Notes: generated by a model from the sequence alone, not told the origin. 64,000 bases of DNA from Candidatus Omnitrophota bacterium (GCA_041652815.1 JBAZGN010000003.1:1530-65529), one strand, 5' to 3'; counted from the stretch's first letter, positions 3,957-56,412 are shown. A program made the numbers and translations.

Positions 3957-3988
3957 ACCCCGTTAGAGAACTAGTTTTCTAACGGGGT
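3957..3988. repeat. Palindromic REP-like element with a CCCCGTTAGA core (copy 1)
   Basis: ACCCCGTTAGAGAA-CTAG-TTTTCTAACGGGGT, a stem of about 14 bp. Related copies lie at 30794-30829 and inside ligA at 55621-55674. Confidence 0.6.
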
Positions 3989-4031
3989 AAATATTAGGTT
4001 GTTATTGTAGTTAAAAAGAAGGAGGAGTGCA

Positions 4032-4538
4032 ATGAAAAAGAGTTTTATTTTTCTGGTAGCGTTTTTAGTGGCTTGTTCTTTTTGTTCGGTTTCTTTTGCC
4101 AAAGAATTAAAAATTGGCTATTTGAATTTTCTGGAAGTATTTAACGAATATAAAAAGACTAAAGATTATGACGAGACATTGAACAAAAAAGCCGAAGTAA
4201 AAGAGAAGGAGCTAAAAGATAAAGAGTCAGAGATAGAGAAAATGCAAAGTAAATTAAACGTACTTAAGGATAAGGAAAAAGAGAAAGAACAACAAAAGGT
4301 AGAAAAAGCAGCAAAGGAGTTTATGCAGCTTAAAAGACAATCGCTTATTGATCTTAAGAAGGAAAAGGACGAAAAAATGAAAGAAATAATAGAAGACATA
4401 GATAAGACTGTAAAAGACTATGCAAAAAAGAATAATTTTGATCTTTTAGTGCATGGAAGCGCTGTTTTGTACGGCAACAGTTCTATGGACGTCACCCAAG
4501 ATATTCTCAAAATTATAAACAGCTCCGCAAAGAAATAA
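4032..4538 (+). CDS. skp: Periplasmic chaperone Skp/OmpH family
   Basis: 168 aa with a signal peptide and a K/E-rich coiled-coil body. Its position between bamA and lpxD supports the call. Confidence 0.7.
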   Translation: MKKSFIFLVAFLVACSFCSVSFAKELKIGYLNFLEVFNEYKKTKDYDETLNKKAEVKEKELKDKESEIEKMQSKLNVLKDKEKEKEQQKVEKAAKEFMQLKRQSLIDLKKEKDEKMKEIIEDIDKTVKDYAKKNNFDLLVHGSAVLYGNSSMDVTQDILKIINSSAKK

Positions 4539-4603
4539 GATTTAGCAGTTATCCGCATGTGTTTAGCACAAAAAACCAGATTTAACTGGTTTATGGTTTT
4601 ACA

Positions 4604-5650
4604 ATGCTTAAGGTTACTCTTTTAGAAATAGCAAAACTGGTTGAAGGCGAGCTTGTAGGCAATAAAGATATTGTGATTACTGGAATTTCGGGTATAAAAG
4701 AAGCCAAGAAAGGTGACATTACTTTTTTGGCTAATTCAAAATACGAGTCATTACTTGAAACTACTGAAGCTTCGGCAATTATTACTTCTAACCTGCCGGT
4801 TAACTCGTCCAAACCTTTGATAAAGACAGAAAATCCTTCTTTTGCTTTTGCGAAAGTTATGGCTATGTTTGCTCCGGATGCAATACGCCATCCGCAAGGC
4901 ATAAGCGAACAGGCGTCTATTTCTCCTAAAGCAAAATTTGGCAAAAATGTTGCAATTGGCCCCTTTACGATTATAGAAGACAATGTAATTGTGGGGAATG
5001 ATACAATCATTTACGGTAATTGCTACGTCGGCCATGATACAAAAATAGGCGACAAATGTATAATTTATCCGAATGTTTCCATACGAGAAAGAATAATAAT
5101 TGGTAACCGTGTAATTATTCATTGCGGCACAGTTATAGGAAGCGATGGCTTTGGGTTTGCGCTGGTAAAAGGTATTCAGGAAAAAATTCCGCAAATAGGG
5201 ACAGTGCTTATAGAAGATGATGTTGAGATAGGCGCAAATGTCACAATAGACAGGGCAAGATTTGATAAAACTTTTATAGGAAAAGGTACGAAAATCGATA
5301 ATCTGGTTCAGATTGCGCACAACGTAATTATCGGGGAAAATTGTACAATCGTTGCCCAGGCAGGCATATCCGGAAGCACAATTCTCGGTAACGGCGTAAT
5401 TTTGGCAGGCCAGGCCGGTTTAGTAGGACATATTACAGTAGGTGACGGCGCGGTAGCGGCTGCACAGGCAGGGGTTACTAAGTCAATACCGGCACACACG
5501 GTTGTGTCGGGTTATCCTGCCAGGCCTCATGATGTTGCAAAACGTGTAAATGCCTGCGTGCAGAATTTACCGCAGCTCTATAAACGCATAAAGGAACTTG
5601 AGCAAAAAATTGAGAAATTGATAAACACGCACAAAGAAAAAAATGGATAA
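4604..5650 (+). CDS. lpxD: UDP-3-O-acylglucosamine N-acyltransferase LpxD
   Basis: 348 aa with left-handed beta-helix hexapeptide repeats and an LpxD-type N-terminal domain. Confidence 0.9.
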
Positions 5651-6950
5651 ACAAAAAACTTTAAAAAAGAAAATTTCATTCGAAGGTATAGGGCTTCACA
5701 GCGGGCAAAGTTCAAAAATAGAAATCCTGCCCGCGCCTATAAATACGGGTATAGTTTTTATAAGGCAGGATTTGGGAGGCCAGCTTATAAAGGCAGATTT
5801 TTATTCTATAGGTTCTACTGAAAAGTTTCCTCGGCGTACTTCTGTTTGCGCAAACGGAATTTATATACATACTGTAGAGCATTTAATGGCTGCCTTTAAT
5901 CTTTTACGTGTAGACAATGCCCAGATAAATATTTGGGGCGAAGAGGTGCCTGGATTAGACGGGAGTGCTAAGGAATTTGTCCAAAAAATACAGGAAATAG
6001 GTTTAGAAGCGCAGGATGCGCCGATAAATTATCTGGTTGTAAAAGAGCCTATCTGGGTTGAAGAAGGCCAAACAAGTATTGTAGCTCTCCCTTCTGATTG
6101 TTTACGTATGTCTTATGCTTTAAAATATGATAATCCCCTGATTGGTTCAGGCTGTGTCGATGTGGTGCTTGACGGAAATGTCCAGGAAAACATTTTTCAA
6201 GCCCGCACATTTTGCCTGGAAGATGAAGTTAAATCTTTGTTAGACATTGGCCTGGGTAAAGGAGCAAATTACGAAAATACGCTGGTAGTTTCCAAGGAGG
6301 GCGTAGTTAAGAATAAATTAAGATTTCCTGACGAGTTCGTTAAACATAAAGTCCTGGATTTAATAGGTGATTTGTATCTTGCTGGCCCGATTAAAGCCCA
6401 TATTATCGCCGTAAAAAGCGGGCACTCTCTGAATATAAAATTGCTTGAGAAACTGCGCCGCTATAAAGAAAAAACTGTGGGCGCCGGAGTAGGGTCGCAC
6501 ACTTCGTTTGTGCCTACCACTAATCAACTAAGTAGTGAAGAGATAATGAAGCTTTTACCGCACCGTTATCCTTTCTTGCTTGTTGACCGTATTATTGATA
6601 TGGAAAAACTTAAAAGGGCAGTAGGTATAAAGAATGTTACGATGAATGAGTATTTCTTTCAAGGGCACTTCCCGGGCCGTCCGGTTATGCCCGGAGTTTT
6701 GATCATAGAAGCAATGGCTCAAGTGGGTGGAGTGCTTATGCTATCAAGCGAAGAAAATAAAGGTAAACTCGCTTATTTCATGGCAGCAAATAATGCAAAA
6801 TTCCGCAGAACCGTCGTTCCGGGCGACCAGTTAGTAATAGAGGTCGTTGCCGGTAAAGTACGCAGTAAAACAGGGACAGTTCACGCAAAAGCTTTTGTTG
6901 ATGAAAAACTTGCCGCAGAGGCAGAGCTTATGTTTGCCCTTGTCGATTAA
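5643..6950 (+). CDS. lpxC-fabZ: Bifunctional LpxC deacetylase / FabZ dehydratase fusion
   Basis: 435 aa. The N-terminal ~280 aa are LpxC-like (HKxLDLIGDL motif); the C-terminal ~150 aa form a FabZ hot-dog fold ([25 protein letters not shown]). Confidence 0.9.
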
Positions 6951-7034
6951 CCAAAACAAAAATTTTATTCGTTTTTACCAATTTTACAGTTTTTTGTTCT
7001 GCGAATTGGTTTTATTAGAGCTTATCGAAATTAA

Positions 7035-7062
7035 TTGTCCTCAATATTTTTTCTGTTATAAT
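7035..7062 (+). promoter_or_regulatory. Sigma70-like promoter (TTGTCC-16-TATAAT) upstream of lpxA
   Basis: The hexamers are read directly from the sequence. The -10 ends 9 nt before the ATG at 7072, so the leader is very short. Confidence 0.35.
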
Positions 7063-7071
7063 AACTAAAAC

Positions 7072-7851
7072 ATGCCTATTAAAGTCGATAAAAAAGCTAT
7101 TATCAGCAAAAACGCAAAACTTGGCCCCGGAGTTATTGTCGGGCCATATGCTATAATCGGCCCTGATGCAGAAATCGGCGCCGGCACATCTATAGATGCG
7201 TTTGTCCAGGTAATCGGAAATACTAAAATCGGTAAAAACTGCCGTATTTTTTCTCACGCGGTGCTAGGGAATCCCCCTCAAGACTTAAAATATAAAGGCG
7301 AGAAAAGCTTCTTGATTGTGGGCGATAATAATATAGTACGCGAATTCGTTACAATGAATCTTGGCACAGAAAAAGATTCAAAAACAATAATCGGCAATAA
7401 CAATCTCATTATGGCTTATTCACATATTGCCCATGACTGCATAATCGGCAATCATAATGTATTAGCTAATTGCGCTACTTTAGCGGGGCATGTTACTATA
7501 GAAGATAAAGTAACGATAGGTGGCCTTGTTGCTGTGCACCAATTCTGCAGGCTTGGCGTGCTTTCTATAGTGGGAGGCTGTTCAAAAGTTGTGCAGGACG
7601 TTGCACCATTTTCAATGAGTGACGGGCATCCATCAGCTGTCTGCGGCCTTAATTTAATCGGCATGAAGCGGGCAAATTTTTCCGTAGAAGCCATACGAGT
7701 CTTAAAAAAAGCTTTCAAAATCCTTTTTTTCGAAAATCATACGTTTGATAAAGCAAAAGAACTGGTTAAAAGCGGACTGCCTTTAACTAAAGAGCTTAAT
7801 TATTTACTCTCATTTATTTCTTCTTCTAAGCGTGGCTTGGGTAGACAATAG
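7072..7851 (+). CDS. lpxA: UDP-N-acetylglucosamine O-acyltransferase LpxA
   Basis: 259 aa with hexapeptide repeats and an LpxA-like C-terminal helical domain. Confidence 0.9.
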   Translation: MPIKVDKKAIISKNAKLGPGVIVGPYAIIGPDAEIGAGTSIDAFVQVIGNTKIGKNCRIFSHAVLGNPPQDLKYKGEKSFLIVGDNNIVREFVTMNLGTEKDSKTIIGNNNLIMAYSHIAHDCIIGNHNVLANCATLAGHVTIEDKVTIGGLVAVHQFCRLGVLSIVGGCSKVVQDVAPFSMSDGHPSAVCGLNLIGMKRANFSVEAIRVLKKAFKILFFENHTFDKAKELVKSGLPLTKELNYLLSFISSSKRGLGRQ

Positions 7852-7868
7852 TTTCCACGAATAATCAA

Positions 7869-8684
7869 TTGCCTATGAAACTCGGAATCATTGCCGGAAA
7901 TCGCCTTCTTCCTATTATACTTTCCAAAGCTATAAAACAAAAAAATCCGCAAACTGAGCTTGTTGCTTTTTGCTTCCATCACGAAACTTCAAAGCTTATC
8001 AAAAAATACGCCGATAGGTGTTATTGGTTTTCCGTAGGTGACCTTGGCCGTCTACGGGATACGATTGAAAGCGAAGGCTTATCGGGATGCATTATGGCTG
8101 GGCAAATTACGCCGCTACGCATTTTCGACCGTAAAAACTGGGATGGAGAATTGCTCAGGCTTGTTAGTGAAACTAACGATATGCGGCCGCATACTATTTT
8201 TTTAAGCATTATCAGATATCTTGAACTGCATGGGGTTAAGTTTCTTGATTCAACGATATATTTAACGCAAAGTCTGGCTTCGTGCGGTTGCATGAATGGT
8301 TTAGTTTATTCGGATTATGTTAAGGAAGACATTAACTTTGGGGTCAACATGGTTTCCCGTTTCGTTGACCTGGATATTGGCCAAACCATGGTTATTAAGA
8401 ACAAAAGCGTAGTTTCTCTGGAGGCTCTGGAAGGGACCGACAATACAATAAAGCGCGGATTTAGACTAGCCGGAAATGGTTGTGTTATTGTTAAATTTAG
8501 CAAAACCAATCAGGACTTAAGGTTTGATGTTCCGGTTGTAGGCCCGCATACTTTAAAGCTTCTTAAAAGAATAAAAGCATCTGCGCTTGTGTTGGAGTCC
8601 GGCAAGGTTTTGATGTTGGAAAAAGAAAAATTTTTGCAACTTGCGTCACAGTATCAAGTACCGGTAATTGGCGTAAATAGGTGA
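7869..8684 (+). CDS. lpxI: LpxI-like UDP-2,3-diacylglucosamine hydrolase (DUF1009)
   Basis: 271 aa with an N-terminus of LGIIAGNRLLP type, typical of the LpxI family that replaces LpxH. It sits directly after lpxA. Confidence 0.65.
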   Translation: MPMKLGIIAGNRLLPIILSKAIKQKNPQTELVAFCFHHETSKLIKKYADRCYWFSVGDLGRLRDTIESEGLSGCIMAGQITPLRIFDRKNWDGELLRLVSETNDMRPHTIFLSIIRYLELHGVKFLDSTIYLTQSLASCGCMNGLVYSDYVKEDINFGVNMVSRFVDLDIGQTMVIKNKSVVSLEALEGTDNTIKRGFRLAGNGCVIVKFSKTNQDLRFDVPVVGPHTLKLLKRIKASALVLESGKVLMLEKEKFLQLASQYQVPVIGVNR

Positions 8685-10618
8685 GTGTGCAACTATTTAA
8701 AATACGCACAGATGTTAAATCTTTTCAAAAATCTACTCCAGGAATAGTTTTTTTTCTTTTACTGCCCATACTTCTTCTATCTATACCAAAAAGTTCTTTG
8801 TGTGAAGGGGAATTGTCTCGCAAGTTTCTTGATACTGCTGCTTCGTGCAAAGAAGCAATGAACTACAAAGAAGCTATCTCTGTAATAGAAAACAATAAAG
8901 GCTTGTTGAGTCAGGCTTCCGAAACAAATTTTTTGTGCCGGCTTTATTATTTAGATGGCCAAAGCAAAAAAGCAATAGAAACATTAAGTACGATTGAAGA
9001 CAAGGATTGGATTAGTTATCTTTATCTTGGCCTTTCCTACGAAGATATAGGCGAAACTACGCTCGCCGTAAAAAATTACCTTCAGTCGCTTAAGCTTAAC
9101 GAAAATTTTATCGCGCTGTACCGATTAGCTAAGATATATTATAAACGTAAATCATACGCAAAGGCCTCACGTTTTTTTTCCAAACTTATCGCGCTTGACT
9201 CAAGTACACGATTTGCCAACTACTATCTTGCGGAATGTTTCTTAAAAACAGGGGATTATAAACGCGCTTATACTTATTCCGCAAAAAGCATAAATTTTTA
9301 TCCGGACAACAAAGATATAAAAACCCAGCTTCTCGTAATTAAAGATAAAATAGGCAAGGCTTTTTTTGTTGAGGCAAAGCGGACAGTAGAACGTGCCAGA
9401 GATATTGTAAAACTTATGTTTTACAAACGTGAGAAAAACGTCCCTGCTATCAAAGTAGGGTTAGCTACCGACCTTAAAGATTTTACCTTTCGCTGCGGCG
9501 GTAATTTTACGGTTTCAGACGCTAAAAATTCATTTACGGGTGAAAAAAACAAGTTCTATAAAATCTTATTTCAAAACAAACGGTTATATTTAACTGACGA
9601 CAGAACAGGAACTGTTTACAAAAAATTTCACAACCAGGTTTCTATCAAAAGCCAAGGTTACCCTTTTTACATTTTGGACGTAAATTACGGCCGCAGCAAT
9701 TTTTGGCATAAAAAAGTAGACAGAATATACCGGGGAGATTTTAAGCTCATAGCCAATAAAGACATTACGCTTATTAATATTGTAAGTATAGAAGAGTATT
9801 TGTATGGAGTTTTACCAGCGGAAATTTTAGCTAGTTCCGATAAAGAGGCACTTTACGCGCAGGCCGTTGCAGCACGAACGATTGCATTTAGGAGCATAAA
9901 ACAGCAACGTCACTCAAGCGAAGATTTTGACGTTTGTGCAGATACCCATTGCCAGGTTTACCAGGGTATGTCTGTTGAAACTGCCGCAACGAATAAAGCA
10001 GTTGATGAAACAAAGGGGCAAATTGTTTTATATAAATCCGAGCCCATTGAGGCAATTTACCACTCAAATTGCGGCGGGTGCCTGCGGCCGGATGTCTTTA
10101 GTAAAAAAGAATATTATGCTAAAGGTTCTGATTCAATGAAAAACAATTGTCCTATGTCTTTCTATGAAGAAGAAGATTGGTTCACCAGTTTTCCCGAAAA
10201 CTTTTGCGCTCATTCTTATAAAACTAACTATCGCTGGCAAAGAGTTTACGATGAAGAAGACTTTTTGCTTGCGTTCGGATATCCCGTGAAAAACATAGTA
10301 TCAATAACTCCGCAAGAAAAAATTACCTGCGGGGCGTACAAATTGGTACGAATAGAAACATCTAAAGATAAAACAGACATCAAAGGAGATTTTAACATAC
10401 GTAACTATTTTGATAAATTACGCAGCAGCGCCTTTAAGGTTGATGTAAAGTTTTCATCGCAAGGCCAGGCAAAAATGATATTTTTCTGGGGAGCAGGTTT
10501 TGGCCATGGCGTCGGCATGTGCCAGGAAGGAGCGCAATTTATGGCAAAAAGCGGGTTTACTTACCAGGAGATAATAAGGCACTACTATCCATATACAGAA
10601 ATAGTAAAAAGATATTAA
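8681..10618 (+). CDS. TPR-repeat protein with C-terminal SpoIID/LytB domain
   Basis: 645 aa: N-terminal hydrophobic segment, TPR-like repeats, then a SpoIID/LytB region (EEYLYGVLPAEI..ALYAQAVAARTIA..HSNCGG). Confidence 0.65.
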   Translation: MSVQLFKIRTDVKSFQKSTPGIVFFLLLPILLLSIPKSSLCEGELSRKFLDTAASCKEAMNYKEAISVIENNKGLLSQASETNFLCRLYYLDGQSKKAIETLSTIEDKDWISYLYLGLSYEDIGETTLAVKNYLQSLKLNENFIALYRLAKIYYKRKSYAKASRFFSKLIALDSSTRFANYYLAECFLKTGDYKRAYTYSAKSINFYPDNKDIKTQLLVIKDKIGKAFFVEAKRTVERARDIVKLMFYKREKNVPAIKVGLATDLKDFTFRCGGNFTVSDAKNSFTGEKNKFYKILFQNKRLYLTDDRTGTVYKKFHNQVSIKSQGYPFYILDVNYGRSNFWHKKVDRIYRGDFKLIANKDITLINIVSIEEYLYGVLPAEILASSDKEALYAQAVAARTIAFRSIKQQRHSSEDFDVCADTHCQVYQGMSVETAATNKAVDETKGQIVLYKSEPIEAIYHSNCGGCLRPDVFSKKEYYAKGSDSMKNNCPMSFYEEEDWFTSFPENFCAHSYKTNYRWQRVYDEEDFLLAFGYPVKNIVSITPQEKITCGAYKLVRIETSKDKTDIKGDFNIRNYFDKLRSSAFKVDVKFSSQGQAKMIFFWGAGFGHGVGMCQEGAQFMAKSGFTYQEIIRHYYPYTEIVKRY

Positions 10619-10619
10619 A

Positions 10620-13256: not shown

Positions 13257-13262
13257 CTGAAT

Positions 13263-27128: not shown

Positions 27129-27272
27129 CGCGAATATTCTCAAATTTAAACCTTTATGGTTTCATTAAAGTTTAAACGCGAATATACGCGAATGGAAAAC
27201 AGGGCAAATAAGATTATTCGCGGCCATTCGCGTTAGATTAGCGTTTATTCGTGTTCTAAAAAAGGAGTTACC

Positions 27273-30781: not shown

Positions 30782-30793
30782 TTGCCTGAAAGT

Positions 30794-30829
30794 AAACCCC
30801 CGTTAGAAAACAAAGTTCTCTAACGGGGT
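30794..30829. repeat. Palindromic REP-like element with a CCCCGTTAGA core (copy 2)
   Basis: CCCCCGTTAGAAAAC-AAA-GTTCTCTAACGGGG. It is roughly the reverse complement of copy 1. Confidence 0.6.
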
Positions 30830-30848
30830 AAATAAAGGAGATAGGAAA

Positions 30849-32573
30849 ATGAAAAAGATAATCCTTTTAATGTGTTTTTTTATTTTGCCTTTAACATCTT
30901 ACGCTCACAAGCTTACAATAATTTATACAGGTAATTCATATTCTTCATTATACCCTTGCGGGCACTGCCCGGCATCTGTCGGCGGGGGAGTTGCACGAAG
31001 GGCATCTGTAATAAATGATGTTAAATCTAAGGCGAAAAACACAATTGTCATAGATGCCGGAGAATTTACCGCAGGCGGCGCATTAGATGAAGCGAGCAAG
31101 GACGTTACGACGGATAAAAATCGAGCCATTTATAATTATAAAGCGCTGCAAGCAATGGGTTACGAAATTGTAGGCGTGGGAGATGCAGAATTTAATTTCG
31201 GAGTAGATTTCCTAAAAGATAATATCAAGAAATTCAAGCTAAACGCAATAAGCGCAAATTTAGTCCTGGAAGGAGTGCGGCCATATTATATAAAAGAATT
31301 TTCCGGATTTAAAGTCGGAATAATCGGCCTCTCTCCTCAATCGATTTCAAAAAAGTCTTCTTCTGCTGATATAACGGATTACGATGCAGCGCTAACCAAT
31401 ACCATAAACAAAATAAAAAATAAGGTAGATTTTATTATTCTGGTTTCTCCGCTTGGAGATGAGGTTAACAAAGCAATTGCCAATAAATTCACTGACGTAA
31501 AGTTGATATTATCCAGTGGAAATATGCTGGATTCCAAAGAATACGAGAAAGTAAATGATACAATAATAATGAAACCATCGTATCTGGCAAAAGAAGTAAG
31601 AATTATAAATATAGAGATTAAAGCTAACAAGATATTGACCTTTGATTTGAAACAGGAAAAACTAGCCTTATCCGTGAAAGAAAATCCTGAAATAAAAAAG
31701 ATTATTCCTGCTTGCTTTAAGGATGGCGACTGCCAAAGGAGAGAAGGATTACTCGCAACTTGCCAAAAACAAGGTTCAAGCAAGGCAGCTTGCGTTTATT
31801 TTGAGCCAAATAGAATAGAAGCTATTTTAATTACTGATACTGCTTGCTCATTCTGCGTAACCGAACCTACCCAGAACTTGCTTCGGGAAATATTTCTGGG
31901 TATAAATTTTAAGGTTGTTGACTACAACACGCCTTACGCAAAAGAGCTTATAAAGAAATACAGCCTGATTAGCCTCCCGGCATTTATTATGCCTCAGGAG
32001 ATAAAAACAGAAAAAGAATTTCCACGGATTGCTAAATTTATCGACGAGAAAGATGGTAAATTATTATTAAAGCCGCAACTTTCCGGATTATTCCTGCTGT
32101 TAAATAGAAAAGAAATCCCGCGCCGGCTTGATTACTTTGTTGATCTCTATGAGCCTTCCGCACTTACAGTGTTTAATGATTTGAGTTCTTTTTGTAAGAA
32201 GGAAAAGATAAAACTTGATGTTCATTTCCTTCTTAGCGAAAAGAATGTTTACGGATATCCCAAAGAAGAAATACAGATAGCTTTAGCAGTAAAAAAAGTT
32301 GCCCCGGATAAATTTTTAGAATATCTTGCTAAAAGATTAAGTGATATTAAAAATACCTCATGGACAGATTCTCTGGAGGCGGTGGGTATCGATTATAAGA
32401 AGATAAAAGGAACTGCAAAATCTAAGGTGGTCGATAGAATGATTGAAGATAATAATAGATTGATTTCGGAATTAAATGTAAATTATGGAAACGTTATCCT
32501 TGTAAATAATAACAAAATTTTTACAGTGCTTAAGATTAAAACGGAAGATTTAGAAAAAATATTCGGGAGGTAA
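30849..32573 (+). CDS. Secreted protein: degenerate 5'-nucleotidase/metallophosphatase-like N-domain (with CGHC motif) + thioredoxin-like C-terminal domains
   Basis: Signal peptide present. The UshA-like fold has lost its DxH metal ligands (YTGNSYSS). The C-terminus has CSFC and further Cys pairs in a thioredoxin-like context. Confidence 0.45.
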   Translation: MKKIILLMCFFILPLTSYAHKLTIIYTGNSYSSLYPCGHCPASVGGGVARRASVINDVKSKAKNTIVIDAGEFTAGGALDEASKDVTTDKNRAIYNYKALQAMGYEIVGVGDAEFNFGVDFLKDNIKKFKLNAISANLVLEGVRPYYIKEFSGFKVGIIGLSPQSISKKSSSADITDYDAALTNTINKIKNKVDFIILVSPLGDEVNKAIANKFTDVKLILSSGNMLDSKEYEKVNDTIIMKPSYLAKEVRIINIEIKANKILTFDLKQEKLALSVKENPEIKKIIPACFKDGDCQRREGLLATCQKQGSSKAACVYFEPNRIEAILITDTACSFCVTEPTQNLLREIFLGINFKVVDYNTPYAKELIKKYSLISLPAFIMPQEIKTEKEFPRIAKFIDEKDGKLLLKPQLSGLFLLLNRKEIPRRLDYFVDLYEPSALTVFNDLSSFCKKEKIKLDVHFLLSEKNVYGYPKEEIQIALAVKKVAPDKFLEYLAKRLSDIKNTSWTDSLEAVGIDYKKIKGTAKSKVVDRMIEDNNRLISELNVNYGNVILVNNNKIFTVLKIKTEDLEKIFGR

Positions 32574-43982: not shown

Positions 43983-44037
43983 GGGCCTGTAGCTCAGTTG
44001 GGAGAGCACTTCGTTCGCAACGAAGGGGTCAGGCCCG
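43983..44037 (+). ncRNA. tRNA-like element lacking a T-arm (acceptor + D-arm + anticodon arm, anticodon CGC)
   Basis: GGGCCTG/CAGGCCC acceptor, a canonical D-arm (TAGCTCAGTTGGGAGAGCA), a CTTCG-TTCGCAA-CGAAG anticodon arm, then directly the 3' acceptor strand and a T-run. Confidence 0.4.
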
Positions 44038-44053: not shown

Positions 44054-44126
44054 GGGCCGGTAGTTCAGTTGGGAGAACGCCTCGTTCGCAACGAGGAGGT
44101 CGGCGGTTCGAATCCGCTCCGGTCCA
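44054..44126 (+). tRNA. tRNA-Ala (anticodon CGC)
   Basis: Folded cloverleaf with a G3:U70 pair, T-arm GGCGGTTCGAATCCGCT and discriminator A. No CCA is encoded. Confidence 0.85.
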
Positions 44127-45880: not shown

Positions 45881-45890
45881 TCTAAATAAT

Positions 45891-46604: not shown

Positions 46605-46606
46605 AG

Positions 46607-49231: not shown

Positions 49232-50294
49232 AATTCTGCTTGTATATGCAAGTTTTGGTGAGGGCCATAAAAGATGCGCTCATTCGCTTAAGGATTACCT
49301 TAATGCGCCCTGCGTAGATCTTTTAGATTTTTCTTATCCTTTCATAAAAAAACTCTACATTTTTCTTTATTTAAGTGTAACCGAACGCCTGCCTTATTTT
49401 TGGAATTTTATATACTCTTCAACAAGAAGCGCACATTTGCGTTTCCTTGCAAATCAAATCCAGCAATTCCTATTTTTTCCTTTTTTTGAATATTTGCGCA
49501 AAACCCATCCTAAAATAATAATCACTACCCATTTTTTTCCGCTAGGTTTTATCGATAAAGTAAAAAAAGAACTGGATATAAAAATAATGACAATAGTAAC
49601 CGATATACGGGCACATCCTATCTGGGCAAACAATTGCGTTGATATGTATTTTGTGGCGCATGAAGAAACCAAAAAAGATTTAATTAAACTGGGCATAGAA
49701 CCATCTAAAATTACCAGCGGCTATATTTCACTGCGGCAAGGTTTTTTAAATATGCCCCAGCATATAAGCATAAGGAAGAAGTTCTTACTGGATGAAAAGC
49801 CGGTTATACTTTTCATGTCCTCGCTTAGAGGAAACTTTCCCTATGTTGATGAGATAATTTCTACGATTAAAGATAAATTCAATATTTTTTTTATTTACGG
49901 AAGGAATTTAAAGCTTAAAAATTACCTTGAAAACCTTAAACTTCCAAACCTTAAGTTTTTTCCTTCTTATGAAGAAATTTGGGAACTTTTTAGTATAAGC
50001 TCAATCATAGTTACGAAACCGGGCGGGCTTACCATTTTTGAAGGAATATACGCAAAGAAATTGTTTATTTTTATGCGTTATATTCCCGGGCAGGAAAAAG
50101 AAAATATGGATTTTTTGGAAAAATACGGCATAGGGAAATTTGCCGAAAGTAAATTGGAATTCTTAAATGCCTTGAATTATTTTAACGAAAAGAAGGAAGA
50201 ACTTGTAAATAACTATCCGATTAATTTTTCGGATATACGGCCCATCATAAGAGAAACCATAAATTCGCTTATCTCTTTGGATATAAAGGAATGA
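49224..50294 (+). CDS. MGDG-synthase-like (GT28) glycosyltransferase
   Basis: N-terminus LLVYASFGEGHKRCAHSL resembles the MGDG_synth domain. The C-terminal half is GT-B. Confidence 0.55.
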   Translation: MDKILLVYASFGEGHKRCAHSLKDYLNAPCVDLLDFSYPFIKKLYIFLYLSVTERLPYFWNFIYSSTRSAHLRFLANQIQQFLFFPFFEYLRKTHPKIIITTHFFPLGFIDKVKKELDIKIMTIVTDIRAHPIWANNCVDMYFVAHEETKKDLIKLGIEPSKITSGYISLRQGFLNMPQHISIRKKFLLDEKPVILFMSSLRGNFPYVDEIISTIKDKFNIFFIYGRNLKLKNYLENLKLPNLKFFPSYEEIWELFSISSIIVTKPGGLTIFEGIYAKKLFIFMRYIPGQEKENMDFLEKYGIGKFAESKLEFLNALNYFNEKKEELVNNYPINFSDIRPIIRETINSLISLDIKE

Positions 50295-52078
50295 AAAAAC
50301 TACGGATTGCAAAAGTAATACTGCCTATTGCCCTGGAGAGAGAATTCGATTATTCAATTCCTGATTCGTTTAATGTAAAATTGGGTTCACGACTGCTTGT
50401 TGATTTTAGAGGCATTAAAACAGTTGGAATACTTAGCGAAATAGTGCATAATTCTGCGATAGAAAAGATAAAACCGGTTATAGAAGTTTTGGATACTAAT
50501 CCTGCATTATCACAAGATGCCATAAAATTTGCCAAACAACTAAGTGAATATTACCCTTATCCGCTAGGTGAATTTTTATTTATGATGTTGCCTGGTTATC
50601 TAAAAAAACCTCGGCCAACCGATTTACCATCGTTTGAAAAAGAAACAAACGTAAATATTCCTCAAAACCTATTCGTGAAAGCCGAAACATTCGAAAAACG
50701 TTATGGAATATGGAAAAAGTTTGTCATAAATAAACTAAAATTGGGTTCGGTTTTAATAATACTTCCTCAAATTTCTTATCTAAATGAAGCTAAAAAAATA
50801 ATCGAAAAAGATTTCCCCGATTTGAAAGTAATGCATGGCTATCAAACTGAGAAAGAACTATTTCAGGGCTGGCTTTCCACAAGGAAGAATTCACTTATTT
50901 TAGGCAGCCGAATGGCTCTTTTTTACTATCCTTACGACCTTGAATTAGTTATTATCGAGGAAGAAAACAGCTCGTATTATTTTCAGGAAGAAAAGCCTTT
51001 TTACCATCTTTTCGATGTTGTATCCATGCTTTCGAAAGCAAAAAAAATAGATATTATATTTGGTGCAGGCTATCCAAGCATCAGCGCATATAATCTAATA
51101 AGTCAAAAACGGCTTAAGCTGGATGAAAACGACGAACATCAGAAAGAAATCAAGATAGTAAACATCGGGGAATATAAGCGGCAATTGATAAGCCCACTAC
51201 TTGTAGAATTGTTGAATAAGAGTTTATCCTCGGGGCAACGCAATGTGATAATGTGGAATAAAACAGGATTTGGTTCGTATCTTGCGTGTTCTTCGTGCGG
51301 CTATATATTCAAATGCGAAAGATGTTCTACTTTTCTTAAGCAATCGCTTACAAGAAATAAAGGCATATGCCCATCATGCGGGTTACAGCGCGATTTATCA
51401 AAAATATGTAAGTTATGTAACAGCGGTTATATACGCAGCGCAGGCTGCGGCATAGAGCGGATAGAATCGAGTTTAAAAAAAATATTTCCTGACATAAAAA
51501 TAGATGAGTGGGAAAAGAAAGCCCCGGATACACAAATCATCCTTGCTACATCAAAAATTTTAAGTACTATATATGGCAGCGAGAAGTTTGATAACGGATT
51601 CTTTCTGGATGCCGATTACCAGATGTCACGGCTTGATTACGACGCTACTTTCGATACTTATACATACTTAAAAAAACTTAACTGTTTATTCAGGGAAAAT
51701 ATATATGTGTTTACGCGCAACAAAAATCATTATTTGTTTAAAACCATAAATGAACCATGGAAACACTTCTACGACAAGGAACTTTTGTCACGAAAAGAGC
51801 TAAAACTTCCTCCCTACGGGGCTCTTGTGCAGATTACTTTAAGAGCACGTTCTGCCGAACGAGTATTCGAGCGTTCAAATCGTCTCTTTAGGGAATTAAC
51901 TGACAAGGGTTTTGATGTGTATGGCCCGCTCAAAGAACAACCTTTTAAACTCAGAGGTAAATTCCGCTATTATATTATAATGAAATCAAAAGACGGATAT
52001 CGGTTACGTAAGGAAATAAAACAGATAGCTAAAGGTGTGCGTAGCCAGGGAATACAAATGGCAATTGCGATACATTGA
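50291..52078 (+). CDS. priA: Primosomal protein N' (PriA) with degenerate helicase ATPase motifs
   Basis: 3'BD/WH N-domain, a cysteine-rich region (CSSCG...CERC...CPSCG) and a PriA-like helicase scaffold. Walker A is absent, the Walker B DEEH position reads EEEN, and the QxxGRAGR motif is absent. Confidence 0.75.
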   Translation: MKKLRIAKVILPIALEREFDYSIPDSFNVKLGSRLLVDFRGIKTVGILSEIVHNSAIEKIKPVIEVLDTNPALSQDAIKFAKQLSEYYPYPLGEFLFMMLPGYLKKPRPTDLPSFEKETNVNIPQNLFVKAETFEKRYGIWKKFVINKLKLGSVLIILPQISYLNEAKKIIEKDFPDLKVMHGYQTEKELFQGWLSTRKNSLILGSRMALFYYPYDLELVIIEEENSSYYFQEEKPFYHLFDVVSMLSKAKKIDIIFGAGYPSISAYNLISQKRLKLDENDEHQKEIKIVNIGEYKRQLISPLLVELLNKSLSSGQRNVIMWNKTGFGSYLACSSCGYIFKCERCSTFLKQSLTRNKGICPSCGLQRDLSKICKLCNSGYIRSAGCGIERIESSLKKIFPDIKIDEWEKKAPDTQIILATSKILSTIYGSEKFDNGFFLDADYQMSRLDYDATFDTYTYLKKLNCLFRENIYVFTRNKNHYLFKTINEPWKHFYDKELLSRKELKLPPYGALVQITLRARSAERVFERSNRLFRELTDKGFDVYGPLKEQPFKLRGKFRYYIIMKSKDGYRLRKEIKQIAKGVRSQGIQMAIAIH

Positions 52079-52184
52079 ATACAGAGAACAGATAACAGAA
52101 GAATCTGCCTTCTGTTTTCTGTGCTCTGTTATCTGTTCTCTGTATTCTGTCATCTGAACCCTAACCGAGCGAAGCGAGGTTAAT
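52079..52184. repeat. ACAGA-rich long inverted repeat + CTAACCGAGCGAAGCGAGGTTAA pre-start motif
   Basis: TACAGAGAACAGATAACAGAAG ... CTTCTGT..CTGTTATCTGTTCTCTGTA arms of about 22 bp. Confidence 0.6.
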
Positions 52185-53114
52185 ATGAATATAATCTATT
52201 TTGGAAGCTCTAAATTTTCGCTAATAATTCTTGAGAATCTTTGCCTTTCGGGATTTATCCCAAAACTTGTTGTTAGCCAGCCCGATAGGCCAAAGGGGAG
52301 GGGGCTTAAACCGCAACCAACTGAAATAAGCCTATTCGCCAAAAAAACAAATATTCCCATAATTACGCCGCAATCGCTTAAAACCAGTGAGATAAAGGAA
52401 GCGCTATCTGGCAAATCCCCCGACTTATTCATAATCGTTGATTATGGAAAAATTCTTCCGTCATCTTTGCTATCTATTCCAAGGATAGCTGCTCTTGGAG
52501 TGCACCCCTCGCTGCTGCCGCTTTATCGTGGCCCTGCACCTATAAATTGGGCCCTGCTTAAAGGGGACAAAGAAACCGGAGTCACCATATTTAAAGTGGC
52601 TGAAGGCTTGGATACCGGGGATATAATTTTGCAAAAAAAAATTGCAATATCTGACAATGACAACGCATATACTCTTCATGAAAAGCTGTCACCTGAGGGC
52701 GCAAAACTATTAATAGAGTCATTAAACATGCTTAAAAAGGGCAATTGGACACCTACTGCCCAAAATGAAGCTTTTTCATCATTTGCTCCTAAGCTTCAAA
52801 AAGAAGACGGCAGGATAAAGTGGCAAGATAATGCCGCAGATATCCGTAACAAAATTAGGGCAATGTCCGGTTGGCCTAGTGCCTATACTTTTTATAAAGG
52901 AAAAATAATTAAAATAATAGAGGCTGACATAATTCTTGTTACCACAGAAGCAGGACCTTCAACAATAGAAACAGTCAAAAAAGATGGCATATATGTTTCA
53001 ACCGGAAATGGAATATTAAAAATAAAACGCCTTAAGCCCGAAGGAAAAGGTGAAATGGATGCATATTCTTTTGTGCTGGGGCACGGTGTAAAAGCCGGGG
53101 ATAAATTTGAATAA
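52185..53114 (+). CDS. fmt: Methionyl-tRNA formyltransferase
   Basis: Formyltransferase N-domain (SLLPLYRGPAPINWA) plus a C-terminal domain. Confidence 0.9.
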   Translation: MNIIYFGSSKFSLIILENLCLSGFIPKLVVSQPDRPKGRGLKPQPTEISLFAKKTNIPIITPQSLKTSEIKEALSGKSPDLFIIVDYGKILPSSLLSIPRIAALGVHPSLLPLYRGPAPINWALLKGDKETGVTIFKVAEGLDTGDIILQKKIAISDNDNAYTLHEKLSPEGAKLLIESLNMLKKGNWTPTAQNEAFSSFAPKLQKEDGRIKWQDNAADIRNKIRAMSGWPSAYTFYKGKIIKIIEADIILVTTEAGPSTIETVKKDGIYVSTGNGILKIKRLKPEGKGEMDAYSFVLGHGVKAGDKFE

Positions 53115-53401
53115 TGAAAAAAAATGCAACCAAACATTACCGCGTATTCTTTTCGGGAATGGTACAAGGGGTAGGATTTCGTTACACCACGCAAGCAATC
53201 GCCGATAAGTATGCAATTTATGGATGGGTAGCTAATCGCGGTAACGGCACAGTTGAGCTTGATATAGAAGGCGCGTCTTACAATTTGGATAATTTCTTAA
53301 AAGATCTTAAGGAAGAATTCAAAACATACATCAAAGATGTTCAAATAGAAGAGCTGCCGATTGGTGAAAAGTATAATGATTTTCAGATACGATTCTATTG
53401 A
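53114..53401 (+). CDS. acyP: Acylphosphatase
   Basis: VQGVGFRYTT and GWVANRGNGTVE motifs. The TAATG overlaps the fmt stop. Confidence 0.8.
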   Translation: MKKNATKHYRVFFSGMVQGVGFRYTTQAIADKYAIYGWVANRGNGTVELDIEGASYNLDNFLKDLKEEFKTYIKDVQIEELPIGEKYNDFQIRFY

Positions 53402-53509
53402 TGTAGTTCTAGTTAAATGATGCTCGATACTCGTTAAAAGTAGCTATAAAATATTGACGGGCATCTAGCATCCAGTATCTAGTATCCAATTTACTTTTTA
53501 AACCCAAAC

Positions 53510-54232
53510 ATGCGTTACGGTATTTTTTCTGATGTGCACAGTAACATCGAAGCGTTTACCGCAGCCATAGAGTATTATAAAAAGGAGAAAATAGATACCT
53601 TTATCTTTCTAGGTGATATAGTTGGTTACGGTGCAAACCCAAAAGAAGCAATTTCCTTATTGCATGACTTAAACCCAATCTGTATAGCTGGTAACCACGA
53701 TTGGGCGGTAATTGATAAATTAACTACTGATTGCTTTAATGAATATGCAAAAGAAGCAATTATCTGGACAAAAACTCAAGTTTCGTTGGAAAACGACTAT
53801 TTGCGGGAATTCCCGCTTACTTATCAAAACGAAAATTTCTTTTGTGTCCATGGTAGCCTGAATAACCCGGAAGATTTCAATTATATCTGGGGGATCAATG
53901 ATGCGAGAGAAAATTTAGAGTTACTTAAAACTAAAATTTTATTCGTAGGCCACTCCCATCGCGCCCAGATATATTACAAGAATGTAAAAGGCATTTTTTT
54001 TCACTCTGAAGCAAGTATTTCTATAAAAACAGATGAAAAATACATTGTAAATGTAGGCTCAATCGGCCAACCTAGGGATAGGGATAGCCGGCTTTCTCTC
54101 TGTATTTATGATAGTGAAGAAGGCATAGTCAGCATCAAACGTATGCAGTATAATATTAAGCTTGCAGCAGAAAAAATTATAAACGCCGGACTGCCTCAAA
54201 TACTTGCTTCAAGGCTTTTTGTGGGGTGGTAG
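53510..54232 (+). CDS. Metallophosphoesterase (YfcE/MJ0936-like)
   Basis: FSDVHSN, GDIVGYG and GNHD motifs. Confidence 0.7.
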   Translation: MRYGIFSDVHSNIEAFTAAIEYYKKEKIDTFIFLGDIVGYGANPKEAISLLHDLNPICIAGNHDWAVIDKLTTDCFNEYAKEAIIWTKTQVSLENDYLREFPLTYQNENFFCVHGSLNNPEDFNYIWGINDARENLELLKTKILFVGHSHRAQIYYKNVKGIFFHSEASISIKTDEKYIVNVGSIGQPRDRDSRLSLCIYDSEEGIVSIKRMQYNIKLAAEKIINAGLPQILASRLFVGW

Positions 54233-54351
54233 ACGCAGAGGACAGATGACAGAAAATAGAGGACAGAAAGACGGGGAATGAAAAACGAAGGGTGAAGGGC
54301 GAAAATAGAGGGACGATAAAGAGGGAAAAGTATCGCGTAAACGAACTTATT

Positions 54352-56412
54352 ATGGGTGAGTTGGATAAAATAAAAAAAGAAATCGAAAAGTTGCGTGAGC
54401 AAATCCGCGACGCCGACTATAAATATTACGTTTTAAGCGAGCCGGAAATTTCCGATAAAGAATATGACGACATCTTGAAACAACTCAAAGGCCTTGAAGA
54501 AAAATACCCGCAGCTTATTACTCCGGATTCTCCTACTCAGCGCGTTTCCGGCGGCCTCCTCGAAGGCTTTCCTACTGTAGAACATAAAATAAAAATGATT
54601 TCTCTGGATAACACTTATTCAATAGAAGAACTTAAAGACTGGGAAAATAAAATCAAACGGATACTGAAACGCGATGTCTATATTGATTATGTGGTTGAAC
54701 TTAAGATAGACGGCGTAAGCTGCGCATTAACTTACGAAAAGGGAATGCTTCTAACCGGGGCAACAAGAGGCGACGGAACTATCGGCGAAGACATCACGAC
54801 AAACGTAAAAACAATAAAATCAGTGCCTCTTAGATTAAGGGGGGACGCTCCAGAGGTGCTCGAAGTCCGGGGCGAAATTTACATGGATAAAAAAGACCTG
54901 GAAAACATAAATAAAATGCGCCTTAAACTGGATGAGCAGCCTTTTGCCAATCCACGCAATGCTGCAAGTGGTTCGTTAAAATTATTAGACCCTTCAATAG
55001 TTAAAGAACGCAACTTGAAATGCTTTATACATTCATCTGGCCTGGCAAAAGGAGTTGAATTTAAAAATCATTATGAATTTTTTGAAAAAATTAAGGCTCT
55101 GGGCTTACGAATAAATCCTTACAATAAATTATGCAAAGATTTGGATGAAGTAATTGAATACTGTCTTTCCTGGCAGTCCAAGCGCGATAGTTTGGAATAT
55201 GAAATTGACGGAATCGTAGTAAAGGTGAATGATTATAGGTTACGTAAAGAACTGGCTGAAACCTTAAAATCTCCTCGTTGGGCAGTTGCCTATAAATTTC
55301 CGGCACATCAGGCAACAACTACTGTGCAAAAAATTGAGTTTGGTGTAGGTAGAACCGGTATAATTACCCCCGTAGCCATACTTAAACCGGTTGAATGTGC
55401 TGGAGTAACCATTTCAAGGTCAACCTTGCATAATTTTGATGAAATTGAGCGTCTTGACGTAAGAGAAGGTGATACTGTTTTAATCGAGCGGGCCGGAGAA
55501 GTTATTCCTAAAATAGTCAAAGTTATAACTACAAAACGCAAAGACGCCTCAAAAAAAATAAAAGTACCAATGGTGTGTCCGGTATGCAGGCAAAAGTTAG
55601 CCAAGGAAAAGGAAGAAGAAGTTTACCCCGTTAGAAGCAAAACTTTCAAAAAGAAAGCTTCTAACGGGGTTTACTGGTATTGCATAAACCCTGATTGCCC
55701 GGCAAAAATAAAACAATCCCTATTGCATTTTGCTTCCCGTGGCGCCATGGATATTGAAGGCATGGGCGAAAGTGTAGTTGAAGAACTGGTTAATCGAAAC
55801 CTGGTTAAAAGCCTTGCAGATATTTACAAAATAACAAAAGAAGATTTGCTTAAACTGCCTCTTTTTGCTCAAAAGAAGGCCGATAACCTTATCCTGGCTA
55901 TTGCAGTCAGTAAAAAACGGCAGGTGTCGCGGCTGCTTTATGCTTTAGGCATGCACCACATTGGAGAAAAAGCAGCAAGCCTTTTGGCTGATAAATTTAA
56001 AAAAATAGATATGTTTTTCAAATTGAAGAAAGAAGACCTCGAAAGAATCAGCGAAATCGGGCCGGTAATGGCTTCGTCGGTTATCAAATTTTTTGCATCC
56101 GCTAAAGCAAAAAAGCTTATAGAGGAATTTAAAAAAAGTGGGCTTAATTTAAGCCAGGAAGAAAAAACGATTAAGCAAAGCTCTATAAGCGGAAAAGTAT
56201 TTATTTTTACAGGAGAACTTAAAAGTTTCTCGCGTAGCCAAGCTAAAGAGTCTGCCGAAGCGCTTGGCGCTAAATGCGCCTTCTCAATAAGCAAGAATAT
56301 AGACTATGTAGTTGTAGGAGAAAACCCCGGCTCTAAATATGAAAAAGCCAAGAAACTACATCTCAATATAATCACTGAACAGGATTTTAAAAAACTAATC
56401 AATCTAGGCTGA
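54352..56412 (+). CDS. ligA: NAD-dependent DNA ligase LigA
   Basis: KxDG adenylation motif (ELKIDGVS), OB fold, Zn finger, HhH and BRCT. The start was trimmed to MGELDKIKKEI, because the ORF from 54292 translates repeat sequence. The Zn-finger loop carries an extra ~17-aa insertion. Confidence 0.85.
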   Translation: MGELDKIKKEIEKLREQIRDADYKYYVLSEPEISDKEYDDILKQLKGLEEKYPQLITPDSPTQRVSGGLLEGFPTVEHKIKMISLDNTYSIEELKDWENKIKRILKRDVYIDYVVELKIDGVSCALTYEKGMLLTGATRGDGTIGEDITTNVKTIKSVPLRLRGDAPEVLEVRGEIYMDKKDLENINKMRLKLDEQPFANPRNAASGSLKLLDPSIVKERNLKCFIHSSGLAKGVEFKNHYEFFEKIKALGLRINPYNKLCKDLDEVIEYCLSWQSKRDSLEYEIDGIVVKVNDYRLRKELAETLKSPRWAVAYKFPAHQATTTVQKIEFGVGRTGIITPVAILKPVECAGVTISRSTLHNFDEIERLDVREGDTVLIERAGEVIPKIVKVITTKRKDASKKIKVPMVCPVCRQKLAKEKEEEVYPVRSKTFKKKASNGVYWYCINPDCPAKIKQSLLHFASRGAMDIEGMGESVVEELVNRNLVKSLADIYKITKEDLLKLPLFAQKKADNLILAIAVSKKRQVSRLLYALGMHHIGEKAASLLADKFKKIDMFFKLKKEDLERISEIGPVMASSVIKFFASAKAKKLIEEFKKSGLNLSQEEKTIKQSSISGKVFIFTGELKSFSRSQAKESAEALGAKCAFSISKNIDYVVVGENPGSKYEKAKKLHLNIITEQDFKKLINLG
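55621..55674. repeat. CCCCGTTAGA-core palindromic element (copy 3) inserted in-frame within ligA
   Basis: TACCCCGTTAGAAGC-N18-GCTTCTAACGGGGTTTAC. It encodes VYPVRSKTFKKKASNGVYWY between the Cys pairs of the LigA zinc finger. Confidence 0.55.

Follow-up and report, generated by a model that had tools for sequence, protein, structure and literature searches.

An ultra-small palindromic hairpin element, probably a strand-specific non-autonomous transposon, with an in-frame copy in the DNA ligase gene of an Omnitrophota bacterium

Elhai and colleagues reportedly described, in 2008, cyanobacterial 'very small mobile repeated elements' of ~20-30 nt, a precedent for mobility at such a size. The palindromes of the REP family are defined by a conserved GTAG or CGTC tag at the palindrome end and are occasionally found within genes, notably those of replication and repair (PMC3733652). 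IS608 is strand-specific, inserting 3' of TTAC, leaving a seamless donor joint and using a 4-nt guide at the foot of its hairpin (PMC3201880). PATEs are hairpin-ended miniature derivatives of the IS200/IS605 group. The lower size of prokaryotic MITEs (miniature transposable elements with inverted repeats) is put at ~50 bp in a recent survey (PMC11602168), and most copies of the element described here are smaller.

The window, that is, the whole stretch of DNA analyzed, comprises 64,000 nucleotides from a Candidatus Omnitrophota bacterium (GCA_041652815.1 JBAZGN010000003.1:1530-65529). A motif scan of the window finds three exact pairs of CCCCGTTAGA and its reverse complement TCTAACGGGG. Copy 1 is a 30-nt hairpin element with exact 10-bp termini (3958-3987, arms at 3958-3967 and 3978-3987) in the spacer between bamA and ompH, as the neighbors are identified by Pfam, and is bounded by the 4-nt direct repeat TAAA on the left (3954-3957) and on the right (3988-3991). 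Copy 2, a 31-nt element (30798-30828, arms at 30798-30807 and 30819-30828), lies between serA and the next open reading frame, with TAAA at 30793-30796 and 30829-30832 and an extra C at 30797, giving five C against four G. Copy 3, of 44 nt (55626-55669, plus strand, arms at 55626-55635 and 55660-55669), lies inside ligA between two copies of TTTA (55622-55625 and 55670-55673). These units replace the spans first drawn for the three palindromes (3957-3988, 30794-30829, and 55621-55674), and the AAA...TAAATA flanks in the original prediction are present but are better read as a 4-nt direct repeat of the target-site type (TAAA). Exact matches to the 10-mer number six in the window, all within these three pairs; with up to one mismatch there are nine against 2.1 expected, a count reached by none of 100 shuffles. 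The proposal that the three palindromes form one repeat family, mobile in the manner of a MITE or REP, is supported. Folded as single-stranded DNA, copies 1 and 2 reach -11.8 kcal/mol (z = -5.0) and -10.6 kcal/mol (z = -4.3), and the ligA copy -18.3 kcal/mol (z = -7.0).

On the plus strand TAAATA follows each intergenic copy, and both copies end near the ribosome-binding site of the next gene, ~30 nt upstream of it for copy 1 and 5 nt for copy 2. Such positions, together with stable hairpins, would be expected of host functional motifs under selection, for example a protein-binding site, an RNA stabilizer, or a terminator, in which case the copy in ligA would be an ancestral loop. Neither intergenic copy, however, has on the transcribed strand the signature of an intrinsic terminator, a G+C-rich hairpin with a U-run: the intrinsic terminator test returns nothing for copy 1, and copy 2 is terminator-like on the minus strand only, which is not the strand of its flanking genes. 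Searched against Rfam at the gathering threshold, the window yields tRNAs only and the palindromes match no family.

The host gene of copy 3, ligA (54292-56412, plus strand), encodes an NAD-dependent DNA ligase with Pfam adenylation, OB, zinc-finger, HhH, and BRCT domains, and its product is 100% identical to the LigA of an Omnitrophica MAG. The insertion splits the coding region of the Cys4 zinc finger (55576-55698, plus strand; C429, C432, C464, and C469) between Cys 2 and Cys 3, hence between the two Cys pairs. The corresponding empty site, with a single TTTA, is found in an 85%-identical ortholog (L120), which reads GAAG-TTTA-CTGG where the filled site of the window reads GAAG-TTTA-[44 nt]-TTTA-CTGG. 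The left TTTA falls within codons V444-Y445, and the element, in the PVR...SNG frame, makes with the right TTTA a 48-nt insertion of 16 codons (...EEEVY-[PVRSKTFKKKASNGVY]-WYC in the protein). The original prediction of a true in-frame insertion between the two Cys pairs therefore holds at the DNA level, with the number of extra residues corrected from about 17 to 16. The protein data agree: a short 15-residue loop is present in 100 of 120 Omnitrophota LigA, the Pfam zinc-finger model has 26 profile positions stretched over 43 residues of the window LigA, and alignment to the solved LigA (1V9P/1DGS) leaves a 19-residue gap where the insertion sits. An AlphaFold2 model keeps the ligase fold (mean pLDDT 86) and renders the insert as a low-confidence loop, pLDDT falling below 50 only at residues 442-457. 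What the ligA copy adds to the zinc finger is thus shown to be a Lys-rich loop of 16 residues, placed between its Cys pairs.

The same ligA codon carries the element in 11 scattered Omnitrophota lineages, and in the LigA tree each of the 11 filled orthologs is a single tip with empty sisters. Between the window and one of the other loci (L122) the ligA element is 95.5% identical and the gene 70% identical (p = 7e-5), and this stronger conservation of the element than of the gene around it is the remaining point in favor of a selected host motif. The same difference in identity also counts in favor of the mobile-element reading. Such a motif would account neither for the direct repeats, the empty sites, the nested insertions, and the scattered distribution on the LigA tree, nor for the presence of the element in unrelated genes and phyla. 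The occurrence of both empty and filled sites among orthologs already contradicts it, and we rate it as very improbable. The palindromes are almost certainly copies of a mobile insertion element, one of them residing in frame in ligA.

The element had been predicted to be genome-specific, and this proved wrong. Identical 10-bp ends were recovered from at least 119 genome loci, against ~17 expected by chance in 596 Gb; the MAGs concerned are labeled as more than 10 bacterial phyla, including Omnitrophota, Patescibacteria, Planctomycetota, Nitrospirota, Desulfobacterota, and Bacteroidota, with a host GC of 30 to 63%, and 21 viral contigs carry the palindrome as well. Archaeal hosts were considered and rejected: the two archaeon-labeled contigs concerned carry a Che operon and a TonB-like gene and may be mis-binned, so no distribution across domains is claimed. 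In the literature the two 10-mers turn up in unrelated papers only, mostly as primers. Element sizes range from 24 to ~100 nt and peak at 29 and 53, most copies measuring 24-53 nt, and some elements are inserted into one another. The perfect stem is 13 bp long in 43 of 79 copies and its top is variable; the sole conserved part is the 10-bp stem foot (CCCCGTTAGA/TCTAACGGGG), whose exactness is given by the design of the search. On inspection, GTTAGA/TCTAAC in the stem resembles the core and inverse-core sites of integron attC, but in the opposite 5'-3' order, and this candidate was dismissed. All sources are metagenome assemblies, in which chimeric reads can yield palindromes, but a chance similarity or an assembly artifact has only a negligible probability: the ligA insertion recurs in independent assemblies from NCBI, JGI, ENA, and Logan, and the target duplication, in-frame length bias, and orientation statistics lie far above chance.

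That length bias concerns the total of element and repeat, since length plus 4 is divisible by 3 in 81 of 144 copies (56%; p = 2e-8). Elements of this length class are shown to sit in frame in genes. Under strict calling there are 21 intragenic copies, and every one of them stays open, with PVR…SNG or PLE…LTG as its reading; stops are absent from two of the three frames that run through the element ends. The few apparent frame-breaking insertions, which might have hinted at ribosomal bypass or splicing (L044, L025, L036, L097, and L053), turned out to lie at gene ends, within spurious ORFs, or within duplications, and this idea was dropped.

A perfect 4-nt flanking direct repeat accompanies 77 of 144 copies (p = 3e-144), while a direct repeat of 3 nt is seen in five copies and one of 5 nt in a single copy. 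Insertion sites follow the pattern Y-T-N-R^Y, in most cases TTTA^C; their logo reads T/C-T-N-A/G, with a C or a T next in 74 of the 78 sites. Within a pair the tetranucleotides co-vary (CGAG/CGAG, TCAA/TCAA, TTCA/TTCA, and others, 19 different sequences in all), as if the target were truly duplicated or homology were required. The target lacks palindromic symmetry, since TTAA is seldom used and the pyrimidine 3' of the repeat has no matching purine 5' of it. Orientation bias is not significant in the first 140 loci alone and emerged from a metagenome scan, which provided 114 independent sites of a 40-nt subfamily. In this subfamily orientation relative to TTTA is 89:1, with TTTA in 86 of 90 sites, C after the 3' repeat in 82 of 90, and 106 of 111 copies intergenic. 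Among copies in which just one of the repeats departs from TTTA, the departure is in the 3' repeat in 20 cases and in the 5' repeat in two (p = 1e-4), so that the tetranucleotide 5' of the hairpin is shown to be the better conserved of the two. Most neighboring genes lie on the strand that does not carry TTTA (103:47; in the multi-phylum set, 49:23), which fits a strand-specific process. The flanking repeat does not co-vary with stem positions 11-14, and no internal guide was identified there. There are also minor flank classes, TTTA-element-TAAA and 2-nt CA/TG repeats, which the reading preferred below does not explain.

In ~1 Mb of genome and viral flanks and 0.6 Mb of metagenome flanks, neither a transposase, HUH or otherwise, nor an autonomous copy was found; no Y1 HUH transposase (TnpA) was seen near the copies, and none of the small ORFs of the window is a transposase. 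Long-range end pairs with matching repeats did not reveal an autonomous parent, and two 1.7-kb candidates (L034 and L039) were discarded, as they contain efflux and prepilin-type genes and no transposase. Nor did a recurrent neighbor protein appear: when 1142 and 1120 flank ORFs were compared all-against-all by BLAST, only housekeeping families came back, and the multi-copy loci L054, L118, L105, and L004 carry chemotaxis, ribosomal, and Clp genes. A half-site 14-mer scan of viral contigs gave 101 matches, nearly all of them chance singletons, so a scan of this kind cannot reveal a parent element.

Terminal inverted repeats with co-varying 4-nt flanking direct repeats, a defined stem of ~13 bp, and seamless-looking empty sites, as in piggyBac excision, are features that a classical MITE would display. 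Its mobility would come from the DDE transposase of an unseen parent IS (IS1380/piggyBac-like, IS5-like, or IS701-like) acting by 4-bp staggered cuts and duplex cut-and-paste. The ends of piggyBac, TTAA-CCCTAGAAAGATA, may resemble the TTTA-CCCCGTTAGAAAT of this element. A relationship between IS1380 and piggyBac is present in the literature. The 89:1 orientation on an asymmetric, non-palindromic target is nevertheless not the use of a two-fold symmetric target, and the two repeats decay unequally (20:2). A length of 24-53 bp would probably be too short for synapsis of duplex ends, every unpaired end or half-site found has a (sometimes degenerate) partner within ~370 nt, and no parent appears in ~1.6 Mb of flanks. 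A classical MITE is accordingly considered unlikely.

The palindromes are probably best explained as an ultra-small non-autonomous hairpin transposon with strand-specific, seamless insertion, working in the manner of IS200/IS605 or REP elements. On physical reasoning, which is what speaks against a duplex intermediate, a duplex of 24-53 bp would be unable to juxtapose its ends, whereas in a folded single strand both ends would lie together at the stem foot. Because the ends would meet there, and because insertion is strand- and orientation-specific at a T-rich tetra- or pentanucleotide, the element is most likely mobile in the form of a single-stranded hairpin, one strand being cut and rejoined seamlessly. 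The route would resemble the peel-and-paste of IS200/IS605 and that proposed for REP/RAYT, with an enzyme supplied in trans that would recognize the foot of the stem and cut at TTTA^C. A single-strand mechanism specifically of the HUH type is a tentative assignment, to which we give a little less than even weight.

Fixed orientation, matching tetranucleotides, the preference for C (junction TTTAC), and seamless excision could also be explained jointly if a tyrosine or serine recombinase, or some enzyme like them, moved the element by conservative site-specific recombination. The excised junction, TCTAACGGGG-TTTA-CCCCGTTAGA, would then recombine with pseudo-sites sharing a 4-5-nt overlap, TTTA(C). 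In this junction a 4-nt spacer separates two inverted 10-bp arms, and recombinase core sites are usually built as arm-spacer-arm. A duplex circle of 33-57 bp is, however, physically implausible, and a folded single strand would still be required. The 4-nt overlap matches neither tyrosine (6-8 nt) nor serine (2 nt) recombinases, none of the copies has a linked recombinase gene, and the arms are absent from the targets. Site-specific recombination of this kind is improbable.

Under the hairpin-transposon reading, neither DDE nor IS200/IS605 chemistry predicts that strict orientation should go together with an asymmetric target and a 4-nt repeat that co-varies, and this combination would point to a variant enzyme or reaction. 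More tentatively still, the element may represent a previously unrecognized class of micro-transposon, a joint claim that we think somewhat doubtful as a whole: a single hairpin with a 10-bp foot shared across phyla, inserted seamlessly into one strand at TTTA^C by an enzyme acting in trans. A member of this class would need or copy the matching tetranucleotide and would excise seamlessly too, and its lengths and frames would have evolved for residence in essential genes. Its mobilizing enzyme, of HUH type or a new kind, would not be encoded beside it, and ligA codon 444/445 would be a recurrent hot spot and not an inherited insertion.

If the hairpin-transposon reading is true, the element is among the smallest mobile DNAs described, and the size of most copies, below the ~50-bp bound of the MITE survey, may explain why it was overlooked. 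It would also be a selfish element shaped to be harmless in essential genes, through a length class of 3n-4, two stop-free frames, and insertion in loops and leader peptides, and could recurrently supply new protein loops across uncultured phyla. In practice the element is a source of 'odd' indels in MAG marker genes and might serve to trace horizontal exchange among phyla that occur together, and a seamless, sequence-targeted single-strand inserter would be of practical interest.

On the features tested, the hairpin element belongs to none of the families considered. It shares with the REP/REPIN-RAYT system palindromic hairpins of 20-40 nt, a conserved tetranucleotide beside the stem foot, and a non-autonomous, mostly intergenic existence with movement thought to occur as single strands. 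REPs, however, carry the GTAG/CGTC tag in place of TTTA, TAAA, or another Y-T-N-R, and are species-specific and usually arranged as inverted pairs, whereas here single copies share a 10-bp foot across phyla; the 4-nt flanking repeat has no counterpart described for REPs, and neither a nearby RAYT gene nor an element-flanked gene was found. Hairpin recognition, oriented strand-specific insertion by a T-rich tetra- or pentanucleotide, seamless excision, and a functionally important tetranucleotide directly 5' of the hairpin foot recall IS200/IS605 and PATEs (PMC3201880). IS200/IS605 elements have two unlike, imperfect subterminal hairpins, as in IS608, and no terminal inverted repeats, whereas here one perfect palindrome is the whole element; they also produce no target duplication, whereas co-varying 4-nt repeats flank the element, and both differences count against an IS200/IS605-like reading. 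Prokaryotic MITEs, including the piggyBac/IS1380 type with its 4-bp duplications, are similar in their terminal inverted repeats, short duplication, non-coding nature, and nesting, but differ from this element in its asymmetric target, fixed orientation, and lack of a parent IS among the sequences searched. The cyanobacterial small dispersed repeats, as they are said to be described, are confined to cyanobacteria, with other sequences and insertion contexts and no reported in-frame bias. The Rickettsia palindromic elements (RPEs) are ~100-150 bp long, restricted to Rickettsia, and unrelated in sequence, whereas this element is mostly 24-53 nt, crosses phyla, and was met in an Omnitrophota host; the two are nonetheless alike as palindromic mobile DNAs repeatedly inserted in frame into unrelated housekeeping genes and translated there as loops (PMC10969869).

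Three copies of an ultra-small palindromic hairpin element, each an exact pair of the 10-mer CCCCGTTAGA and its reverse complement, are found in the window: copy 1 at 3958-3987 in the spacer between bamA and ompH, copy 2 at 30798-30828 between serA and a 574-aa ORF (30849-32573, directly 3' of the element) that matches no Pfam family, and copy 3 at 55626-55669 within ligA. The original prediction of a three-copy palindrome family is upheld by these exact pairs and by the abundance of the 10-mer, which with at most one mismatch occurs nine times in the window against 2.1 expected, a count reached in no shuffle. Folded as single-stranded DNA, every copy is predicted to form a stable hairpin (-10.6 to -18.3 kcal/mol, z -4.3 to -7.0). 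An Rfam search of the window returned tRNAs only and matched none of the palindromes, and the transcribed strand of the intergenic copies 1 and 2 carries no terminator-like signature.

Copy 3 had been proposed to be an in-frame insertion of about 17 residues in the zinc finger of LigA, and the insertion itself is confirmed. Between zinc-finger cysteines 2 and 3, 100 of 120 orthologs have 15 residues (...KEKEEEVYWYC) versus 31 in the window LigA, a protein 100% identical to P0001, the ortholog from an Omnitrophota MAG. The empty site is preserved at the DNA level in P0003, an 85% identical ortholog, which reads GAAGAAG-TTTA-CTGGTAT where the window ligA reads GAAGAAG-TTTA-[44-nt element]-TTTA-CTGGTAT. 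The event therefore added 44 + 4 = 48 nt, which is exactly 16 codons (PVRSKTFKKKASNGVY) and corrects the proposed size. The Pfam zinc-finger model spreads its 26 positions over 43 residues of the window LigA, solved LigA structures show a 19-residue gap at the insert, and an AlphaFold2 model of residues 340-620 (mean pLDDT 86) is confident except at 442-457, the insert alone. These results concur in marking the Lys-rich insert as additional and tolerated, and the model fits a surface loop.

Several other structures were observed in the window. Between the end of a priA-like ORF (52078) and fmt (52185) lies a complex perfect palindrome (52077-52147) with 23-nt arms (GAATACAGAGAACAGATAACAGA) and a nested 21-nt pair, unrelated to the CCCCGTTAGA family. 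Look-alike inverted structures of CGAAT repeats are located at 1516-1599 upstream of bamA and at 27175-27234 upstream of clpP (ACCACGAAT..ACCACGAAT // ATTCGTGGCCATTCGT, and ACGCGAATATACGCGAAT // ATTCGCGGCCATTCGCG), and may be either an operator or another family of hairpin repeats. Two copies of the 3' end of tRNA-Val (56849-56920), one inverted and one direct, follow the gene, with CCTGCAGTGCCCAT recurring at 56948-56961; the region 56849-56961 resembles the leftover attachment site of an integrative element. Directly upstream of tRNA-Ala (44054-44126), a partial tRNA-like Rfam match (43983-44037; 40 bits, 55 nt) received no ARAGORN call.

The element was also expected to be genome-specific, which its distribution contradicts. 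Searching 185,579 species genomes for both ends at a spacing of 3-33 nt identified at least 119 loci, where about 17 are expected by chance, and the palindrome is also present on 21 viral contigs. One locus, L028, belongs to the complete genome of Ca. Velamenicoccus archaeovorus (CP019384). MAG labels among the listed loci include Omnitrophota, many Patescibacteria, Planctomycetota, Nitrospirota, Desulfobacterota, Bacteroidota, and others, with host GC contents of 30-63%. Two archaeal-labeled loci have bacterial-looking gene content, namely a full Che operon on L054 (Aenigmatarchaeota bin) and a TonB-like gene on L064 (Methanosarcinales bin); these bins may be contaminated, and a cross-domain range is therefore not claimed. 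On the related large viral contigs L124, L126, L129, L131, and L139, a 29-nt copy lies inside ORFs of up to ~2,400 codons, with extended palindromic flanks (AAGC...GCTT), here an inverted repeat in place of the direct one.

Across the 144-154 copies covered by the anatomy statistics, element length ranges from 24 to 98 nt and peaks at 29 nt (33 copies) and 53 nt (11 copies). The stem usually comprises 13 perfect base pairs, 10 of them invariant and three variable but complementary, and the interior is variable with recognizable subfamilies of 40, 47, and 50 nt; nested copies are also present. A perfect 4-nt direct repeat flanks 77 of 144 copies (five others have a 3-nt and one a 5-nt repeat), and these 4-nt repeats include 19 different sequences and therefore either come from the target or rely on homology. 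When sites are oriented by their pyrimidine content, the target takes the form T/C-T-N-A/G, with C or T as the next base in 74 of 78 cases; TTTA^C is typical. Minor flank classes, represented among loci L013, L029, L111, L142, and L055 and with [el] denoting the element, are TTCA[el]CAAG or TGCA[el]CAAG, a 2-nt CA..CA repeat, and TTTA[el]TAAA, the converse of which, TAAA[el]TTTA, is almost absent.

The 40-nt subfamily, collected from metagenomes at 114 distinct sites, 92 of which share one interior, can be oriented by that interior. This subfamily has undergone a burst in sediment Desulfobacterota. Its perfect repeats, once oriented, are TTTA 86 times, TTCA twice, TTTG once, and TAAA once, which puts the orientation at 89:1 (p = 1e-25), and the repeat is followed by C at 82 of the 90 sites. 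Where a single repeat departs from TTTA, the departure is on the 3' side in 20 cases and on the 5' side in two (p = 1e-4), yet in the rare variants both sides change together (TTCA/TTCA in two cases, TTTG/TTTG in one). Neighboring genes mostly lie opposite the TTTA strand, by 103:47 in this subfamily and 49:23 in the multi-phylum set, a rule obeyed by window copies 1 and 2, which have TAAA on the sense strand. Mobilization as a DDE-type MITE accounts for the flanking repeat but leaves orientation, target asymmetry, and element size unexplained, and we consider it unlikely. Repeat matching and orientation would both follow from a recombinase with a 4-nt overlap, although such an enzyme working at 4-nt spacing is without precedent and this explanation is less likely still.

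An insert is found at the identical ligA codon in 11 orthologs, eight of which retain recognizable PVR/PIR...SNG ends; the other three look decayed or shortened. In a neighbor-joining LigA tree every filled ortholog stands alone as a tip among empty sisters. The inserts are of two interior types (44 and 53 nt), and that of locus L121 has TCTA flanks on both sides versus TTTA in the window. Between the window and locus L122, the elements share 95.5% identity versus 70% for the ligA genes (p = 7e-5). Repeated independent insertion is more parsimonious than repeated precise loss, and either one requires a site-precise, seamless process. A single-copy ligA insertion had to be small and in-frame on arrival, so the small elements themselves appear to be the mobile units, not scars of larger ones.

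Compatibility with reading frames extends beyond ligA. For 81 of the 144 copies (p = 2e-8), and for all 21 copies deep in long ORFs, element length plus 4 is divisible by three; in those 21 the frame remains open. Stop codons occur at the element ends in one frame only (CCC CGT TAG on the left, xTC TAA on the right), and the two stop-free frames encode PVR...SNG and PLE...LTG. Among the genes that host the element are ligA, a radical-SAM enzyme gene, ATPase genes, and many prepilin-type genes, which are hit at the N-terminus; there the target is GGN TTT ACN and the GFT motif is duplicated directly 5' of the cleavage motif; the extra residues might be removed by leader-peptide cleavage. Planctomycetota prepilin-type (GFTLIELLVV) genes are repeatedly filled in the PLE...LTG frame (L039 1815-4235, L089 6029-6650). 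The 40-nt subfamily with its repeat amounts to 44 nt, not a multiple of three, and 106 of 111 sites are intergenic.

Sequence-specific recognition of the stem foot is shown for the element, together with a 4-nt repeat on its flanks, insertion in one orientation at an asymmetric target, empty sites that are seamless, and nesting. A duplex of 24-53 bp would be unable to join its ends for 4-bp staggered integration, whereas in a folded single strand both ends would meet at the foot of the stem. On one strand, TTTA^C is the sequence at the two junctions and at the target alike, in keeping with the 'peel and paste' logic of IS200/IS605, which is strand-specific, inserts 3' of TTAC, leaves a seamless donor joint, and gives a key role to the tetranucleotide on the 5' side of the hairpin foot (PMC3201880). 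It is also in keeping with the route proposed for REP/RAYT (PMC3733652). Movement by a single-strand HUH-like route is the likeliest of the mechanisms considered, though at somewhat less than even odds; a co-varying repeat falls outside what IS200/IS605-type chemistry predicts. That the reaction is new is a genuine, though less than even, possibility. No enzyme for mobility was found in the element flank regions or among the small ORFs of the window.

The two 10-mer ends are absent from relevant papers in the searchable literature. REP/REPIN sequences are similar in working, but the element has neither their GTAG or CGTC tag nor their species specificity. IS200/IS605-derived hairpin elements also work similarly, but the element is without their two imperfect hairpins and, unlike that family, has a flanking duplication. 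The Rickettsia RPE (PMC10969869) behaves similarly in genes and differs in size and host. Prokaryotic MITEs were given a size range of 50-800 bp in a recent survey (PMC11602168), and the symmetric target use of classical MITEs is not shared by the element, which is best placed, as a distinct form, among the small palindromic non-autonomous mobile elements.
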